From: a phage
Strand: one strand, 5' to 3'
Assembly: GCA_012225525.1 (NCBI GenBank)
Contig: GCA_012225525.1_3923.1
Length of the DNA: 64,000 nucleotides
A program made the position numbers and the translations under genes. Under the pieces are notes generated by a model. That model was not told where the DNA came from. It ran no database searches and saw only the letters and a list, made by a program, of their open reading frames with translations. How positions within the stretch are numbered: position 1 is the first letter of the stretch; every line of letters starts with the position of its first letter. Below are positions 15,032-50,470 of this stretch, one piece after another.

Positions 15032-16168
15032 TTACTCATAATCCCTAATAACTAGCCCAACAGGAAACTGTAAAGAACCCTTACGAGTCATCTTCTGGAA
15101 CTGAACCGTTAAAGGTTTCCCGATAAACTCTTCAGGATGTTCAGCAAGATACTGTTTCTTCTCGTGTGTAGTTTTCCATGAAACATCTACAAAGACGTTA
15201 GGAAGAGTCTCTACAACGAACTTACCATGACCACGCTTATCAGTCTTTACACCAGTCACTTTAAACTCTTCAGTGTGCATCTTCTTGTGCTTAATCAAGA
15301 AGTATGAACGGTGACAACACTCATAGAAGGAGTCTTCAGAGATTGAACGGTACATTGCACCTTCAAACTTAGCTTCAACCCACTTATCATGAGCTTCATC
15401 AAACTCTTCCCAAGAATTTACACGACGAGACTTAACAGGAACAACTTTACAGCCGTCTCTAAAGTCATTCAATGGTGAAGTCTCAATAATATCTCTACGC
15501 TCAGGCCACGTCTTAGTGCTGTCACAGATATCGTACCAGTAGAACTGGAGTAGATGTCGGTCTGGATTGTCAGCATTCTTAATCATAGACACAATATCTT
15601 CTAAGTCCCAACCATGAGCATAAATCTCACCATCAAAGTCTTCGACTTGTGGATGCAATTTAAGCAACAAAAGCAAATCTGGGATTAGTTCTTCTGGGAC
15701 GTTGTAAACAGTATTCTCACGAGAATAAGCCGTGAAGCTAACTAAATCAGCATCTCTTGAAATTCTACAACGAACACCATCAAGTTTTGGTTGAGCATCA
15801 GCAGGGAATATCAAATACTTTGCATGGCTAACCTTTGCAGCATCATGAGCAAGCTGTACACCCACCTTTTCAGTATTCTGTGCAGACTCTTTTGTGTAAG
15901 CATAACCTTTGCGGTCAACTTGCTTCTTGTACTTAGCAGTAACTTCAAAGAGAGCTTGCTGTTCAGCGTTACGCTCATTCTTTTTACCGATGTTTTTAGG
16001 TTCTGCTGTATACTCTTCAAACATCATCTTGCCATTTTCTTTACCGTAGGTTGTAATAACTTTGTCACCTACAGCAACGCATGACCAGACGTTGAATGAG
16101 CCGTCTTTATTTTGTTTGTACAGTATTGTCATTTTATTCCTCTGAATGATACCAAGTGTTGCAAGCAT
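15032..16168 (-). CDS. ATP-dependent DNA ligase
   Basis: 378 aa; adenylation motif I KLDGVR (PKLDGVRCRI) and phage-ligase size. Confidence 0.8.
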   Translation of the reverse strand: MLATLGIIQRNKMTILYKQNKDGSFNVWSCVAVGDKVITTYGKENGKMMFEEYTAEPKNIGKKNERNAEQQALFEVTAKYKKQVDRKGYAYTKESAQNTEKVGVQLAHDAAKVSHAKYLIFPADAQPKLDGVRCRISRDADLVSFTAYSRENTVYNVPEELIPDLLLLLKLHPQVEDFDGEIYAHGWDLEDIVSMIKNADNPDRHLLQFYWYDICDSTKTWPERRDIIETSPLNDFRDGCKVVPVKSRRVNSWEEFDEAHDKWVEAKFEGAMYRSISEDSFYECCHRSYFLIKHKKMHTEEFKVTGVKTDKRGHGKFVVETLPNVFVDVSWKTTHEKKQYLAEHPEEFIGKPLTVQFQKMTRKGSLQFPVGLVIRDYE

Positions 16169-38323: not shown

Positions 38324-38644
38324 ATGAGCAAAGTTTATAACACTCGTAAATTACAGATTTTCTTACTGTGCCAGTTTATGGCTAGAGAACATAACTCCTA
38401 CTATTGTGGTACAGGATTCATTAGTGATAATGATGGCTCATATCTCCCATTCAAAGAGGCTGTAAAACTCTTCAATGAAGAGAAAAGCTCTGAGAAAGAT
38501 ATTGAAAAGGTTAAATTAACCTATAGTAAGAAAGATAAGAAGATTATCTGCCTAGATAACTTTGTGAAAGTTACCAAAGAAACTAAAGAGTTAATGGAAG
38601 AAAGTGAAATTCCATTCACAAGAATCTTGAAAGTAGCTCAGTAA
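38324..38644 (+). CDS. hypothetical protein
   Basis: 106 aa ORF. Confidence 0.4.
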   Translation: MSKVYNTRKLQIFLLCQFMAREHNSYYCGTGFISDNDGSYLPFKEAVKLFNEEKSSEKDIEKVKLTYSKKDKKIICLDNFVKVTKETKELMEESEIPFTRILKVAQ

Positions 38645-38695
38645 ACAGATACTATAAGGGGACTGTAAAGGTTCCCTTTTTATTTTGGAGGTAAA

Positions 38696-39211
38696 ATGTA
38701 TCTGTCAAACCTGAAACGTTCGGTTGCAATGTCAGTTCTAAGACTCAGCTTTGATGAGCGTCAAGAGTTTATAGACTCCCACAAATATGACCCTTCAAAT
38801 TCTAATCACATGGTTCTTTGGAATCGTGGTAACTTACGTGAAAGAGCACTTGTCCGTTATTACCCACACTACACAATAGATAACCTGTATGAATGGTGTG
38901 TTGTGAAGAACACCATTGCAACACTGAACAATCTTTGCAGGTATACGGGTAAGCAAATATTTACATTAGGTCATCACAAACCTGTTACAAAAGGTGGTGA
39001 GCATCACTGTGCAAACTGGTTTATCCAAACTAAAGCTGATAACCAGAAGCAAGGAGATAGCCTCCTAAGTATCCCTAAGATGACCTATGAAGAGCAAGAG
39101 AAATATATCAAAAATAATATGCCAGATGTGCTTGACAACAACTATACAGATTTGGCAATATCTCTCCTGTTGAAGTTCGAGACAGTTTATAGGGCAACTT
39201 ATAATGACTAA
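38696..39211 (+). CDS. putative HNH-family endonuclease
   Basis: LGHHKPVTKGGEHHCANW resembles HNH core (HH..P...GG...N); free-standing between nrdG and the prs-like gene. Confidence 0.4.
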   Translation: MYLSNLKRSVAMSVLRLSFDERQEFIDSHKYDPSNSNHMVLWNRGNLRERALVRYYPHYTIDNLYEWCVVKNTIATLNNLCRYTGKQIFTLGHHKPVTKGGEHHCANWFIQTKADNQKQGDSLLSIPKMTYEEQEKYIKNNMPDVLDNNYTDLAISLLLKFETVYRATYND

Positions 39212-39482
39212 AGAAAAGTGGGAGATTTTACCATTAGTCAGTGAAGGAGGTAATGGTTGTGAAATGTACATGATACGTGGTCATGTTCCAGAGCCAATTG
39301 CACTTGAGATGGTAAACAACTTTACAGATGGTTCTTACAAAGACTTAGGCGAACCAACTGTCAAGCAACAATGGGTTAAACCTGTACCAGACAGCACAGG
39401 TAACTGTAGTGTACTTTATCACGTTGTAGACCCTGCAAAATGCAAATCTGCAATGGCAGTAACAAACGTAACTTTTGATTGA
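39204..39482 (+). CDS. hypothetical protein
   Basis: 92 aa ORF. Confidence 0.35.
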   Translation: MTKEKWEILPLVSEGGNGCEMYMIRGHVPEPIALEMVNNFTDGSYKDLGEPTVKQQWVKPVPDSTGNCSVLYHVVDPAKCKSAMAVTNVTFD

Positions 39483-40375
39483 GAGAGAAAACTATGAAAA
39501 CATCTATCCGTGTTACAGTTCATTCACCAACTAAAGGGACTCATGAAGAAGAGTTTAACATCGTCCAATTCCCTTCTGGTGAGATTGGTGGACACTTTTC
39601 GCCAGAGTTTGTTGATTTTACTGCTTATGCAGCATCATCCATCAACAATGTGATTATGATTGTAAAAGGTTATGACAAGGACACATTGTTTGCTGTGGCA
39701 CTTGCTAAAGAAGCAATTGATGATTTAATTCCTCATGATTATGCTTTAAAGACTGTCATCTTTTACTACTTACCAAATGCACGATATGACCGTCACATGT
39801 TTAAAGGTGACGCAGCAGCTTTAAAGGTTTTTGCTAAACAGATTAATGCAATGGGATTTGGCGCAGTCTGTGCAGTTGACCCTCACAGCTATGTACCAGA
39901 TAACCTGTTTAACTGCTTCCAGAGTATTCCTCAAAAGGAGATTGCAGTCCACTATGCAAATGACCCACTGATTGATTACTTAGTAGCCCCAGATGCAGGT
40001 GCTGCTAAGAAGATTGCAGAGACTGCTAAAGAGGTGGATAAACCATATATCACAATGTCTAAAGTACGCAACCTTAAGACTGGTGAAATTACTGGTATGC
40101 GAATCCTTGATGATGTTGATTTGACAGATAAAACCGTCATGATTCTGGATGATATCTGTGATGGTGGTCGAACCTTCATAGAAGCAGCTAAACATCTTCG
40201 TGAAGCAGGTGCAAAACGTGTGGAACTCTATGTAACACACGGTATCTTCTCTAAAGATGTTGAAAACCTTCTTGACAATGGCATTGACCACATCTACACT
40301 ACAAACTCTTTAGGGGAAGCTAAAGACCGTGGCTTAACACATTATGGTCAAGTTACTGTAGCAAACCTTGATTGA
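39479..40375 (+). CDS. ribose-phosphate pyrophosphokinase (PRPP synthetase)-like protein; candidate ADP-ribose pyrophosphate synthetase
   Basis: 298 aa; Prs-like motifs YLPNARYDR (Prs YARQDR), VDPHS (Prs DLHA) and PRPP-binding loop VMILDDICDGGRTF. Confidence 0.75.
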   Translation: MREKTMKTSIRVTVHSPTKGTHEEEFNIVQFPSGEIGGHFSPEFVDFTAYAASSINNVIMIVKGYDKDTLFAVALAKEAIDDLIPHDYALKTVIFYYLPNARYDRHMFKGDAAALKVFAKQINAMGFGAVCAVDPHSYVPDNLFNCFQSIPQKEIAVHYANDPLIDYLVAPDAGAAKKIAETAKEVDKPYITMSKVRNLKTGEITGMRILDDVDLTDKTVMILDDICDGGRTFIEAAKHLREAGAKRVELYVTHGIFSKDVENLLDNGIDHIYTTNSLGEAKDRGLTHYGQVTVANLD

Positions 40376-40384
40376 AACTTTATA

Positions 40385-40406
40385 GGGGCTTAAAAGCCCC
40401 ATTTTG
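40385..40406 (+). terminator. hairpin, possible weak terminator
   Basis: GGGGCT-taaa-AGCCCC hairpin followed by ATTTTG. Confidence 0.4.
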
Positions 40407-40420
40407 AGAGAGATTAAAAG

Positions 40421-42202
40421 ATGACTAAATCACTTTATGCAGTACCAGCAGGTTTAAACGCAGATGCTTACAAATCTGGTCATGTTTACCAGTACCCTAG
40501 TGCAACAGAGTACTTGATGTTCAACCTGACACCACGTAGTGACAAATGGTTTAACAGCCCCTTAGCAATTGATGGTGTAGTAGCTTTTGGTATTCAACGT
40601 TTCGTTAAAGATTACTTGATAGACCACTGGAACGCCACTTTCTTTGAACGTGATAAAAAAGAAGCCATTGATGAAATCTTAGAAGTCATGAATGGTGTTC
40701 TGGGTAAAGATGCTATCGGTCGAGAGCATTGGGAAGCACTTCACGACTTAGGTTATCTACCAGTTGAAGTATACGCTGTAGAAGAAGGTACAGTTGTTCC
40801 TATGCGTGTACCAATGATTGTCTTCCAGAACACTGTTTCAGGTTTCCATTGGGTAGCGGGGTATCTGGAAGATGCTTTCTCTGCTGAGATTTGGAAGGCT
40901 TGTACCATTGCAACTATTGCATTGCATTATAAACGCATCTGTAAGAAGTGGGCTGACCTTACTTGCGACAATGACTTACATTTGCCTTATCAGTGCCATG
41001 ACTTTGCTATGCGTGGTATGTCCGGCTTTACTGATGACGCATTTAACGCTGTAGGCCACTTAACCAGCTTTAAAGGAACTGATAGCTTCCCTGCTGTGTA
41101 TACGGCTAAACGAATCTATGGACAGTCTTACCCAATCTCTGATATTGGTAGCTCTGTACCAGCCACTGAGCACTCTGTAATGTGTGCAAACATTGCTTGG
41201 GAAGGTGGTAATGATTTGGTTGAAGAAGAAAGACGCTTTAAAGGTGAGTTACAAACCTTCCGTCGTTTCTTAACAGAAACTTACCCAACTGGTATTGCAA
41301 GTGTTGTTTCAGACACTTATAACTTCTGGAGAACTGTGTCAGAAATCTTACCAGCACTTCGTAAAGAAATTATGGAACGTGATGGCAAACTGGTAATTCG
41401 TCCTGACTCTGGAGACCCTGTACATATTGTCACAGGTTATAAAGCAATCCACTTAGAATGTGCTAAGAAGGCTTATTACGAGCACCTAATCAAGCTGGAA
41501 GCCAGTGACACAATGTTGAATGCTGTTCTGAACATGAAGCTTGAAAACATCAACTATGGTATTGCTGGATGGCTACTGTCAGAAGGCTACGAAATGGTTG
41601 TTGACAGAGAAGACTTTGAAGTTGCTGATACAGTGATGTTGAAAAACGCCTATATGGTTGGTTCTGCAAACGTTGTAACACGTCCTGTAGCAGAGATTGA
41701 TGGGGCCATTAAGACCTTGTATAACATCTTTGGAGGAACTATCAACTCTAAAGGGTTTAAGGTACTGGATGAGCACATTGGCCTTATCTATGGTGACTCT
41801 ATCACGTTGGAACGTGCAAACGAAATCCTGAAGCGTTTGTATGAAATGGGTTTTGCAAGCTCTAACGTAGTGTTTGGTGTAGGTTCTTACACTTACCAGT
41901 ACATGACTCGTGACACCTTTGCATTTGCTGTCAAAGCAACTCTTGCAAGCATTGGTGGTAAAGAGATTATGCTTGCAAAAGACCCTAAAACAGATAGCGG
42001 TATTAAGAAGTCTGCTTTTGGTGGTGTAGCCCCTATGTGGGATGGTGAGAATCTGAAAGCTGTAGATGGCTATGGATTCCAGAGTTTTGCAGATGCACTT
42101 GAGCATCCAGCTTGTGCTTTACGTTTAGTCTTTAGCGACTCTGAGCAGTTCGGCTACACAACTCTTGGCGATATTCGAAATAATATTGACAAGCAGCTTT
42201 AA
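40421..42202 (+). CDS. nicotinamide phosphoribosyltransferase (NAMPT/NadV)-like protein; candidate nicotinamide ADP-ribose transferase
   Basis: 593 aa ORF immediately after the Prs-like gene; assignment from overall family resemblance and the conserved gene pairing, not a specific motif I can verify by eye. Confidence 0.6.
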   Translation: MTKSLYAVPAGLNADAYKSGHVYQYPSATEYLMFNLTPRSDKWFNSPLAIDGVVAFGIQRFVKDYLIDHWNATFFERDKKEAIDEILEVMNGVLGKDAIGREHWEALHDLGYLPVEVYAVEEGTVVPMRVPMIVFQNTVSGFHWVAGYLEDAFSAEIWKACTIATIALHYKRICKKWADLTCDNDLHLPYQCHDFAMRGMSGFTDDAFNAVGHLTSFKGTDSFPAVYTAKRIYGQSYPISDIGSSVPATEHSVMCANIAWEGGNDLVEEERRFKGELQTFRRFLTETYPTGIASVVSDTYNFWRTVSEILPALRKEIMERDGKLVIRPDSGDPVHIVTGYKAIHLECAKKAYYEHLIKLEASDTMLNAVLNMKLENINYGIAGWLLSEGYEMVVDREDFEVADTVMLKNAYMVGSANVVTRPVAEIDGAIKTLYNIFGGTINSKGFKVLDEHIGLIYGDSITLERANEILKRLYEMGFASSNVVFGVGSYTYQYMTRDTFAFAVKATLASIGGKEIMLAKDPKTDSGIKKSAFGGVAPMWDGENLKAVDGYGFQSFADALEHPACALRLVFSDSEQFGYTTLGDIRNNIDKQL

Positions 42203-42217
42203 AAGTATATGATAATA

Positions 42218-42238
42218 GGCTCCTACGGGAGCCTTTTT
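42218..42238 (+). terminator. intrinsic terminator
   Basis: GGCTCC-tacg-GGAGCC hairpin followed by TTTTT. Confidence 0.7.
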
Positions 42239-42255
42239 AATTTCTGGAGAAAATT

Positions 42256-49684: not shown

Positions 49685-50470
49685 ATGGGTATTGTAAAAA
49701 TAATCAATGGTGATATCTTTGCCGCATTTGATAAAGGTAAGTTTGACATCATCGGTCACGGTTGCAACTGTATGAATTTAATGGGTGCAGGTATCGCTGA
49801 CAAGATTTCTAAACTTTACCCAAAAGCATATGAGACCGATACAGAAGTTTATCTATATGCAGGTGGTATAGGACACAAACCCTGTGAAAATTTACTGGGT
49901 AATTTCTCTGTAGCACGTTTAAAACAAGGTCGTATAGCTAACCTTTACACTCAGCTTAAGACTGGTAAAGATGCCCGATACAGTGCTTTAGAGTCATCTT
50001 TGAAACAGCTTAACAGATACTGTGAAGTTAATCAGTTGAAGAAAGTTGGTTTACCTATGATTGGTGCAGGTATTGGTGGGCTGGACCCTCAAGCTGTCAT
50101 AGTTATCATCAATCAGGTGATGAAGAGTGTAGATGTTTATCTGTATGTCTATGAAGGAGAGATGTACCACAAGTTACGCTCAGGTTGGAAGAACTACTGT
50201 GAACCAGAATACTTTGCAGGTGTAGCAGTGTTCACAGATAACGCAGTTACCCTCTTCAGACGAAGAAAAGGTAAGATACATCAAAGTAACCCTCCGGTTG
50301 AAAAGATGTCTCTGAGTAACGCTCTAGTTACCCACCTGTCGAAGAGCAATCACAGGATTGCAGTAACATTTGGCAGTGATGCAGATACTTATATCTATGC
50401 AAGAACTGATGAGGATATCGAGACAGTTTTCTCTTCACCAGAAGTTACCTTCTTAGACGCAAAGAACTAA
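49685..50470 (+). CDS. macrodomain protein (TARG1/DarG-like ADP-ribose-processing fold) with extra C-terminal domain
   Basis: N-terminal INGDIF...IIGHGCNCMNLMGAGIA...PMIGAGIGGLD parallels TARG1-type motifs (GDLF...H..S.DC.MGAGIA...PRIGCGLD); about 110 aa C-terminal extension of unknown fold. Confidence 0.65.
   Translation: MGIVKIINGDIFAAFDKGKFDIIGHGCNCMNLMGAGIADKISKLYPKAYETDTEVYLYAGGIGHKPCENLLGNFSVARLKQGRIANLYTQLKTGKDARYSALESSLKQLNRYCEVNQLKKVGLPMIGAGIGGLDPQAVIVIINQVMKSVDVYLYVYEGEMYHKLRSGWKNYCEPEYFAGVAVFTDNAVTLFRRRKGKIHQSNPPVEKMSLSNALVTHLSKSNHRIAVTFGSDADTYIYARTDEDIETVFSSPEVTFLDAKN

Follow-up and report, generated by a model that had tools for sequence, protein, structure and literature searches.

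The pairing of a Prs-like gene with a NAMPT-like gene in a phage raises the question of whether the two serve ordinary NAD+ salvage or rebuild NAD+ that host immunity has consumed. The pair lies in a 64,000-nucleotide stretch of phage DNA (the window), and an earlier note had preferred a NARP1-type pathway over PRPP/NMN salvage. The window phage is a Felixounavirus, and we put at roughly 92% the probability that the two genes constitute the NARP1 NAD+ reconstitution pathway of this genus, with the direct ADP-ribose (ADPR) route. In this pathway, NAD+-depleting defences (SIR2-HerA, type I Thoeris, DSR1/2, SEFIR and similar systems) would cleave NAD+ to ADP-ribose and nicotinamide; the Prs-like enzyme, Adps, would use ATP to pyrophosphorylate ADP-ribose at the 1'' position, yielding ADPR-PP, and the NAMPT-like enzyme, Namat, would combine ADPR-PP with nicotinamide to give NAD+ and pyrophosphate. 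NAD+ would be rebuilt in this way with neither an NMN intermediate nor an NMN adenylyltransferase. The pair has already been published, in the same genus, and the finding is not new.

Both open reading frames are as first described. The Prs-like frame carries the motifs YYLPNARYDRH, AVDPHSY and TVMILDDICDGGRTF and matches Pfam Pribosyltran and Pribosyl_synth; adjacent to it on the same strand, across a 45-nt spacer (40376-40420), lies the 593-aa frame, which matches Pfam NAPRTase and NAMPT_N. Only the start of the first gene calls for revision. The frame had been listed at 39479-40375 on the plus strand with a TTG start (298 aa), but adps most likely begins at ATG 39494 (293 aa), since Bas63 gene 79 is annotated likewise and a GAGAGAG Shine-Dalgarno-like run stands upstream, as it also does before the namat ATG; the TTG overlaps the stop codon of the preceding ORF. 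Upstream of adps, the ORFs of 171 aa and 92 aa have bas63_0077 and 0078 as their orthologs, and phrog_3500, one of the families that these two ORFs match, carries weak HNH-like similarity. The ORFs beside the pair match only PHROG families of unknown function. In a Pfam search of seven flanking ORFs, four before the pair and three after it, E values up to 1 brought up only NrdG, DUF7390 and rIIA/rIIB-type proteins and neither a Macro nor a RyR domain.

Table 1. Features of the adps-namat locus and of the distant Macro-domain gene, in window coordinates
Feature	Position	Strand	Basis
Probable upstream unit boundary: promoter match, hairpin and T-run	38627..38678	+	sequence
Two ORFs without assigned function (171 aa and 92 aa)	38696..39482	+	phrog_3500, phrog_4726
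adps, ADP-ribose pyrophosphokinase (Prs-like, 293 aa)	39494..40375	+	ORF list; comparison with Bas63 gene 79
5' half of adps, allele deeply diverged from Bas63	39494..39995	+	DNA identity
GC hairpin GGGGCU-UAAA-AGCCCC followed by AUUUU, in the adps-namat spacer	40385..40400	+	folding
namat, nicotinamide ADP-ribose transferase (NAMPT-like, 593 aa)	40421-42202	+	ATG ORF
Namat selectivity-clamp loop (SCL), residues S40-I50	40538..40570	+	identical to Bas63
Insertion of ~80 aa in Namat, residues ~345-427	41453..41701	+	alignment
Namat selectivity-clamp helix (SCH), G488-S-Y-T-Y-Q-Y-M-T-R-D498	41882..41914	+	alignment
Intrinsic terminator-like hairpin AGGCUCC-UACG-GGAGCCU plus UUUUUAAUUU	42217-42234	+	-13.8 kcal/mol, z -2.5
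Macro-domain protein (261 aa), Adpp homolog, outside the operon	49685..50470	+	Pfam Macro, 31.9 bits vs cut-off 22

NARP1 was discovered by deleting genes 79-80 of the Felixounavirus Bas63 (JohannRWettstein, MZ501086; Osterman et al., bioRxiv 10.1101/2024.02.11.579819). Namat of the window is 98% identical (580/593) to the product of gene 80, and Adps is 78% identical (229/293) to that of gene 79. With the two genes intact, Bas63 overcomes SIR2-HerA, keeps NAD+ up and makes ADPR-PP, as seen by metabolomics of infected cells; the deletion mutant does not (10.1101/2024.02.11.579819). The supplementary tables of the discovery paper contain near-identical proteins from phage wV8—the Prs-like one in the Adps/Prs table, the NAMPT-like one as 'Adps-associated'. 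NARP1 is defined there by Prs-family and Namat-family genes within 10 genes of each other, and adps and namat are immediate neighbours. Orthology and synteny with Bas63, the wV8 entries and the signatures of Namat described below thus support the original preference for a NARP1-type pair over salvage. In vitro activity is known for the SPbetaL1, DyoEdafos and Paenibacillus homologs; the biochemistry rests on the SPbetaL1 proteins (31% identity to the window's Adps, 46% to its Namat) because the Bas63 protein did not purify. By analogy, the proteins encoded in the window, including the divergent Adps allele, presumably catalyse the NARP1 reactions.

The closest solved structures to Namat are those of SPbetaL1 Namat (9W5W/9W5X, E 7e-128), with human NAMPT at about 1e-40; identity reaches 43-46% to Namat proteins versus 31% to the two Nampt proteins compared that lack Adps. 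The general model PRK09198 (NAPRTase) is also passed (468.9 bits vs 405). The published rule for the clamp loop calls for Arg at position 3, or for Lys or Tyr at this position followed by an adenine-stacking residue, with Bas63 as the Lys-type example. In the window the loop reads S40-D41-K42-W43, with Lys at position 3 and W43 next, and it would supply the adenine-stacking residue. The Phi3 position of the clamp helix, usually Asn or Val, is Met in this protein, and GGGLLQ..RD occupies the same site in the two phage Nampt homologs that have no Adps next to them. All 20 NAD+-contact residues of SPbetaL1 Namat are identical or conservatively replaced, and the catalytic core is intact: F195, R198, D221, R327, D329 and the invariant H251 (ATEHS motif) correspond to F189, R192, D215, R306, D308 and the catalytic His of SPbetaL1. 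Namat also carries an insertion of about 80 residues that is missing from the SPbetaL1, phage K and ICP1 proteins and is represented by a shorter one at the same site in JG004. Its sole family match is to NAMPT-type PHROGs, and the term 'insertion' is absent from the Namat structure paper (PMC12774641).

Adps matches phrog_619 (E 4e-97) and passes only the broad subfamily model TIGR01251 (122.6 bits vs cut-off 113). It scores below every Prs equivalog cut-off (best NF002095, 104 bits vs 296) and shares 23% identity with E. coli Prs; by the equivalog measure it is not a canonical PRPP synthetase (Prs). The K-x-R loop is retained: K190-V-R192 aligns with K162 of SPbetaL1 Adps, which is essential in that enzyme and equivalent to K197 of B. 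subtilis Prs. These scores weigh against ordinary salvage, under which the Prs-like protein would make PRPP, the NAMPT-like protein would make NMN, and host NadR or PncC would complete NAD+. Salvage does agree with the names in the databases—Pfam, NCBIfam and PHROG label the proteins Prs and NAMPT/NAPRTase, two NCBIfam models lie above cut-off, and the GenBank records of all relatives are annotated in the same way—and with the ability of Namat to form NMN from PRPP in vitro, where it is roughly half as active as human Nampt. Yet the counter-defence of the orthologous Bas63 operon persists in a host without pncC and nadR, ADPR-PP builds up in infected cells only under an active defence system, and the SPbetaL1 Adps homolog converted ADPR and ATP to ADPR-PP with no measurable PRPP-synthase product (10.1101/2024.02.11.579819). 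The adenine clamp of the window's Namat, moreover, is lacking in Nampt. Grouping with canonical Prs and with Nampt that forms NMN, which the earlier note had named as an outcome against its reading, was not seen in equivalog scores, identities or the clamp motif. The statement that no NMN adenylyltransferase (Nmnat) lies nearby is likewise borne out: when the cytidyltransferase of Vibrio phage PG07 was run by tblastn over the 64-kb window, which is part of the genome, the best E was 0.19 (Nampt control, 8e-34), and no Nmnat is annotated in the syntenic region of Bas63 (positions 30-79 kb). We therefore consider salvage as the function of the pair very improbable, while Namat may play a minor salvage role because it can still form NMN from PRPP in vitro. 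A phage NAD+-dependent ligase was considered separately as a source of NAD+ need and rejected: the ligase at 15032-16168 is of the ATP-dependent type.

A different question is posed by the N-terminal third of Adps. DNA identity to Bas63 drops from 99% to 60-64% at 39496, the recombination boundary at the start of adps. Codons 1-90 show saturation at synonymous sites (pS 0.81), with a dN of 0.35; the N-terminal ~90 residues are 59% identical to the Bas63 allele, the C-terminal 113 residues 96%. The window and wV8 share 99.8% DNA identity over the 5' half. Across the genus, identity of this half is bimodal (at least 90% in 156 records, 60-80% in 98, none between), and the Adps allele of most Felixounaviruses differs from the experimentally tested Bas63 allele. 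Conceivably, the wV8-type N-terminus alters the substrate range or regulation of NARP1 relative to Bas63, for instance through use of another ADPR derivative or evasion of a host inhibitor, with NAD+ still rebuilt. The sharp boundary and bimodal distribution are in line with such a change, as are the dN value against a nearly unchanged Namat and the Adps of FelixO1, a mosaic of wV8-type and Bas63-type sequence. However, dN/dS is low (0.05-0.2) wherever measurable and therefore indicates purifying rather than diversifying selection; both alleles keep the residues that are the same in every Adps and Prs sequence compared (among them R97, D99, R100, K111, H131, D167, R192 and D219-D220), and both are present in the published Adps table. 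An altered input to the pathway is accordingly a slim prospect, and we retain the NARP1 reading with ADP-ribose as the presumed substrate for both alleles.

The pair had also been placed between two strong terminators, which holds on one side only. The hairpin and T-run 3' of namat are conserved in Bas63, and this terminator-like element would end the adps-namat unit. Immediately 5' of adps no terminator-like structure is present (z = 0.23); the closest such site upstream, 38656-38678, is separated from the gene by the ORFs of 171 aa and 92 aa. The unit therefore probably comprises four genes, and to judge from the sequence these genes, bounded by the two terminator-like sites, probably form one transcript. 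At the upstream boundary a sigma70-like promoter match (TTGAAA-17-TACTAT) stands directly before the hairpin and T-run, and the same cassette layout is repeated at 42186-42234. The spacer between adps and namat contains a further hairpin (-11.5 kcal/mol for the centroid, z = -2.73) whose stem is kept in Bas63 with one change in the loop. It may terminate transcription in part or affect RNA stability; Rfam returned no family for the hairpin or its flanks at E up to 1.

Downstream of namat, past the terminator and at a distance of some 7.5 kb (about 13 genes), the window encodes a Macro-domain protein. It belongs to phrog_335, as do Gary Adpp and the operon-linked Macro protein of JG004, and its fold resembles TARG1, Poa1p and DarG. 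The two residues essential in Gary Adpp, H24 and N27, have their counterparts in H25 and N28. The protein is closer to T4-type Macro proteins (34-35% identity) than to Gary Adpp (27%, E 8e-14), and NARP1 is not known from the phage groups with T4-type Macro proteins; a search of the literature on phage Poa1p-like or T4 Tk.4 macrodomains found nothing specific. An extra C-terminal beta domain of ~105 aa is lineage-specific, has no recognisable fold and might add regulation or targeting.

Adpp, an ADPR-1''-phosphate phosphatase, is the third enzyme of the extended pathway NARP1-AP, described as Adps-Adpp-Namat in Vibrio phage Gary (bioRxiv 10.64898/2026.01.28.702374). Gary and the window share Adps, Namat and an Adpp-type Macro protein, but Gary has Adpp in the operon, whereas the Macro gene of the window is unlinked. 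NARP1-AP was assigned where a Macro-domain protein is encoded at most two genes away from Adps or Namat, and the window has none at that distance; the published screen would miss the gene at 49685-50470 because it was limited to two genes around NARP1. The main text and tables of that paper mention neither an aRES test of a Felixounavirus nor a NARP1-AP listing for the genus. Elsewhere, the window phage nonetheless encodes a homolog of Adpp in which both the His and the Asn essential to Adpp are kept (bas63_0095 in Bas63). We tentatively raise the possibility, on balance doubtful, that Felixounaviruses including Bas63 run a dispersed three-enzyme NARP1-AP with the Macro protein as Adpp. The Macro protein would then turn ADPR-1''-phosphate into ADPR, and NAD+ would also be rebuilt once RES-type (aRES) NAD+ phosphorylases have attacked. 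With unlinked Adpp-like proteins of this kind, the share of NARP1 phages countering aRES may exceed the reported 15%; published NARP1 phages number 859. Alternatively, the Macro protein may remove ADP-ribose from DNA, RNA or protein.

The locus is a confirmation of a pathway published in 2024, inferred from raw sequence and correct for the genus of its discovery. Public annotation is misleading in this case: related GenBank records, Pfam, NCBIfam and PHROG all name a PRPP synthetase and a nicotinamide or nicotinate phosphoribosyltransferase. For re-annotation, the clamp motif of Namat offers a simple discriminator, and the side observations reported above could modestly extend the published picture of NARP1.

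Among known systems, the NARP1 of Bas63 agrees with the window in genus, gene order, the 45-nt spacer with its hairpin, the terminator and the neighbouring genes (NrdG upstream, rIIA/rIIB downstream), and its Namat has the same ~80-aa insertion and both clamp elements. It differs in the N-terminal allele of Adps and in a small extra gene, 0081, directly after namat. The NARP1 of Bacillus phage SPbetaL1 (PMC12774641) has the same Adps-then-Namat order, catalytic core, clamp-helix motif and Adps loop lysine; its clamp loop, however, has R40 in place of K42-W43, the insertion is lacking, and the two genes abut with no spacer hairpin. NARP2, of the Vibrio phage KVP40 type, also restores NAD+ with a NAMPT-fold enzyme, but it lacks Adps and depends on PRPP and a partnering Nmnat. 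In the window, Adps is present and the clamp is of Namat type; with its aromatic clamp-helix motif and no Nmnat match in 64 kb, the window falls outside the NARP2/NMN-forming Nampt class. Cellular Prs and Nampt/NadV share with the pair their folds and catalytic chemistry, in which a pyrophosphoryl group is placed on ribose C1 and then displaced by nicotinamide. The substrates set them apart: the cellular enzymes use ribose-5-phosphate and PRPP, whereas the phage pair, as NARP1, would use ADP-ribose and ADPR-PP.

The earlier note had described a Prs-like ORF with characteristic motifs, followed after a 45-nt spacer by a 593-aa NAMPT-like ORF, and this arrangement is real. It is present in the ORF list and recognized by Pfam (Pribosyltran and Pribosyl_synth in the first product, NAPRTase and NAMPT_N in the second) as well as by PHROGs (phrog_619, "ribose-phosphate pyrophosphokinase", E 4e-97; phrog_448, "nicotinamide phosphoribosyl transferase", E 5e-202). 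The frame of the first gene, adps, is open from the TTG at which that note had begun it, but the ATG at 39494 is the likely start: the ortholog in phage Bas63 is annotated from the equivalent position, an identical GAGAGAG run precedes both this ATG and that of namat, and the TTG overlaps the stop codon of the upstream ORF.

Features of the adps-namat region and the distal Macro-domain gene
Feature	Coordinates	Strand	Remarks
Upstream boundary cassette	38627-38678		sigma70-like -35/-10 match, directly GC hairpin, T-run, GGAG, ATG; consensus matches only
Nearest upstream terminator-like site	38656-38678		two ORFs 5' of adps
Two ORFs between upstream terminator and adps	38696-39482	+	171 aa (phrog_3500, weak HNH-like similarity) and 92 aa (phrog_4726)
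adps, open frame	39479-40375	+	TTG start, 298 aa; ORF list; holds the motifs quoted in the earlier note
adps, likely frame	39494-40375	+	ATG start, 293 aa
Spacer hairpin	40385-40400		GGGGCU-UAAA-AGCCCC, then AUUUU; inside the 45-nt adps-namat spacer; z = -2.7
namat	40421-42202	+	593 aa; ORF list
Downstream boundary cassette	42186-42234		same layout as upstream cassette; consensus matches only
Terminator-like hairpin and T-run	42217-42234		3' of namat
Macro-domain protein gene	49685-50470	+	261 aa; above Pfam Macro threshold; 7.5 kb 3' of namat

Megablast of the gene pair retrieved 254 phage records, almost all of them from Felixounavirus or FelixO1-like phages (wV8, SP22, HY02 and others), with a best identity of 97.9%; a search with the first 25 kb of the window points to the same group. 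All related GenBank records annotate the pair as Prs and NadV or NAPRTase, and curated general models keep these old names: TIGR01251 (ribose-phosphate diphosphokinase) passes on the adps product (122.6 bits versus a cut-off of 113), and PRK09198 (nicotinate phosphoribosyltransferase) on the namat product (468.9 versus 405). NARP1, the two-enzyme NAD+ rebuilding pathway, is therefore mislabelled by automatic annotation. In the Felixounavirus Bas63 (MZ501086), gene 79 (293 aa) and gene 80 (593 aa) are flanked by NrdG and rIIA/rIIB, as is the pair in the window, and identity reaches 580/593 for Namat and 229/293 for Adps. The wV8 Adps differs from that of the window at two positions within the stretch shown, and the 5' halves of the two adps genes are 99.8% identical. 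Proteins of wV8 are already listed in the supplementary tables of the NARP1 discovery paper, where its Namat is tagged "Adps-associated" (bioRxiv 10.1101/2024.02.11.579819).

In that work, Osterman et al. deleted genes 79-80 in the BASEL phage Bas63 (JohannRWettstein), which became sensitive to SIR2-HerA. NAD+ levels were maintained with the wild-type phage, ADPR-pyrophosphate (ADPR-PP) was seen only in defence-carrying cells under wild-type infection, and the effect was retained when the host had neither pncC nor nadR. The chemistry comes from the SPbetaL1 homologs: Adps converts ADPR and ATP to ADPR-PP, from which Namat makes NAD+ with nicotinamide (bioRxiv 10.1101/2024.02.11.579819). Solved structures of SPbetaL1 Namat (9W5X, 9W5W) defined an adenine "selectivity clamp" composed of a variable loop (SCL) and a helix (SCH), the latter carrying the Namat-only motif GS-X-Phi-X-Phi-X-Phi-TRD (PMC12774641).

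We aligned the Namat proteins of the window, Bas63, SPbetaL1, phage K, ICP1 and JG004 with two phage Nampt proteins without a neighbouring Adps, one of which adjoins a cytidyltransferase gene. At every NAD+-contact position of SPbetaL1 Namat, the window Namat has the same residue or a conservative substitution. Its SCH motif reads GSYTYQYMTRD (residues 488-498) versus GGGLLQ..RD in the Adps-less proteins, and its SCL, S-D-K42-W43, is the Lys-type arrangement described for Bas63 (PMC12774641); identity is 43-46% to other Namat and 31% to the Nampt group. The window Adps retains the K-x-R loop, and its K190 is aligned with K162, which is essential in SPbetaL1 Adps. It is 23% identical to E. coli Prs and falls far short of the cut-off of every Prs equivalog model. 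Among solved structures, cellular Prs is the best match to Adps (best E 4.5e-18), so an Adps structure appears to be absent from the PDB copy searched.

The NARP1-type reading proposed in the earlier note is thus supported by orthology to Bas63, the clamp signature and the failure of the Prs equivalog models. The published Bas63 genetics and the clamp signature both contradict an ordinary PRPP/NMN salvage pair; Namat makes NMN from PRPP in vitro (PMC12774641), so it may have this as a minor side activity. The reported lack of an NMN adenylyltransferase near the pair holds for the entire 64 kb, where no Nmnat is detectable. A special NAD+ need arising from the phage's own ligation was also considered and rejected, since the DNA ligase (15032-16168, minus strand) is of the ATP-dependent type (DNA_ligase_A_M and OB domain).

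The pair had also been placed between two strong terminators. A terminator-like hairpin does follow namat, but the nearest upstream site precedes adps by two ORFs, and the unit between terminators therefore probably comprises four genes; sequence directly 5' of adps folds no better than shuffled (z = 0.23). The 171-aa and 92-aa ORFs have conserved counterparts in genes 77 and 78 of Bas63 and probably share a transcript with NARP1. The compact cassette layout at the 5' end of the unit recurs at its 3' end. A transcript from the promoter match of such a cassette would start within the hairpin, which would then stop upstream read-through only. The spacer hairpin has a stem conserved in Bas63 and no Rfam match; it may reduce read-through or make the transcript more stable. 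A comparison of 42203-42255 of the window with 25456-25858 of L006, the Bas63 sequence, shows that Bas63 has an extra 114-aa gene, bas63_0081, directly 3' of namat, which is absent from the window.

Some NARP1 operons include accessory enzymes, namely Adpp, a Macro-domain ADPR-1''-phosphate phosphatase that makes NARP1 ("NARP1-AP") effective versus aRES, and RyDEP, a RyR-domain glycosidase. No Macro or RyR domain was found in the ORFs flanking the adps-namat pair. The distal 261-aa Macro-domain protein has a Bas63 ortholog, bas63_0095 (98% identity; annotated "putative phosphatase"). Several features relate it to Adpp: PHROG 335, to which it belongs, also contains the characterised Adpp of Vibrio phage Gary and a Macro protein linked to the operon in JG004, and its alignment with each spans the whole Macro domain (27% identity, E 8e-14, and 30%, E 2e-21, respectively). 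It keeps all positions invariant in four NARP1-linked Macro proteins, among them H25 and N28, the equivalents of H24 and N27, which are essential in Gary Adpp, and its confident predicted model (pLDDT 90.5) matches the TARG1, Poa1p and DarG macrodomains; the extra C-terminal beta domain of ~105 aa has no recognisable fold and no PDB fold match. The published NARP1-AP screen covered two genes on either side of NARP1, a range that excludes this gene by its distance from namat, and its table lists no Felixounavirus. The family has a very wide distribution, with 2,852 phage records, and its T4-type members resemble the protein more closely (34-35% identity) than Gary Adpp does; phages of the T4 type are not known to carry NARP1. 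More distant homologs with both domains (32-41% identity) all lie in the same Ounavirinae-type synteny, 7.5-10 kb 3' of namat; this arrangement reflects conservation in one lineage and is no evidence that the gene became associated with NARP1 independently. A functional link of the protein to NARP1 is possible, though less likely than not. We also observe that a JG004 gene annotated "phosphatase" (4377-4856 of L010, the JG004 sequence), two genes 3' of its Namat, encodes a Macro-domain protein; this protein appears as NARP1-associated in the table of the aRES paper.

DNA identity to Bas63 is 99% up to 39495, drops right at the start of adps to 60-64% (39496-39795), and climbs via 77-79% to ~90% at the adps 3' end and 93-100% over most of namat. 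Synonymous sites are saturated in adps codons 1-90 (pS 0.81, dN 0.35); dS then declines along adps (1.18, 0.74, 0.44) to 0.17 in namat, with dN/dS of 0.05-0.2 wherever measurable. Among the 254 records, identity over the adps 5' half (39494-39995) is bimodal: 156 are at ≥90%, 98 at 60-80% and none between, and FelixO1 Adps combines the two types as a mosaic. This half looks like an old, deeply diverged allele that recombination has swapped and purifying selection has maintained. The window has the more common type, and the experimentally deleted allele is of the other. Felixounavirus Namat also has ~80 extra residues (~345-427; window 41453-41701) between the RPDSGDP strand and the next helix; they are absent from the Namat of SPbetaL1 (crystallised), phage K and ICP1, and in JG004 Namat a shorter insertion occupies this site. 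The Namat structure paper does not use the word "insertion" (PMC12774641).

The evidence supports the locus as a member of the described NARP1 pathway, in the genus of its discovery. Since the pathway is published and was found in the same genus, Felixounavirus, the locus is already known: beyond a minor description of the allele and insertion and one tentative lead, a specialist would see in it the founding example of a published pathway.
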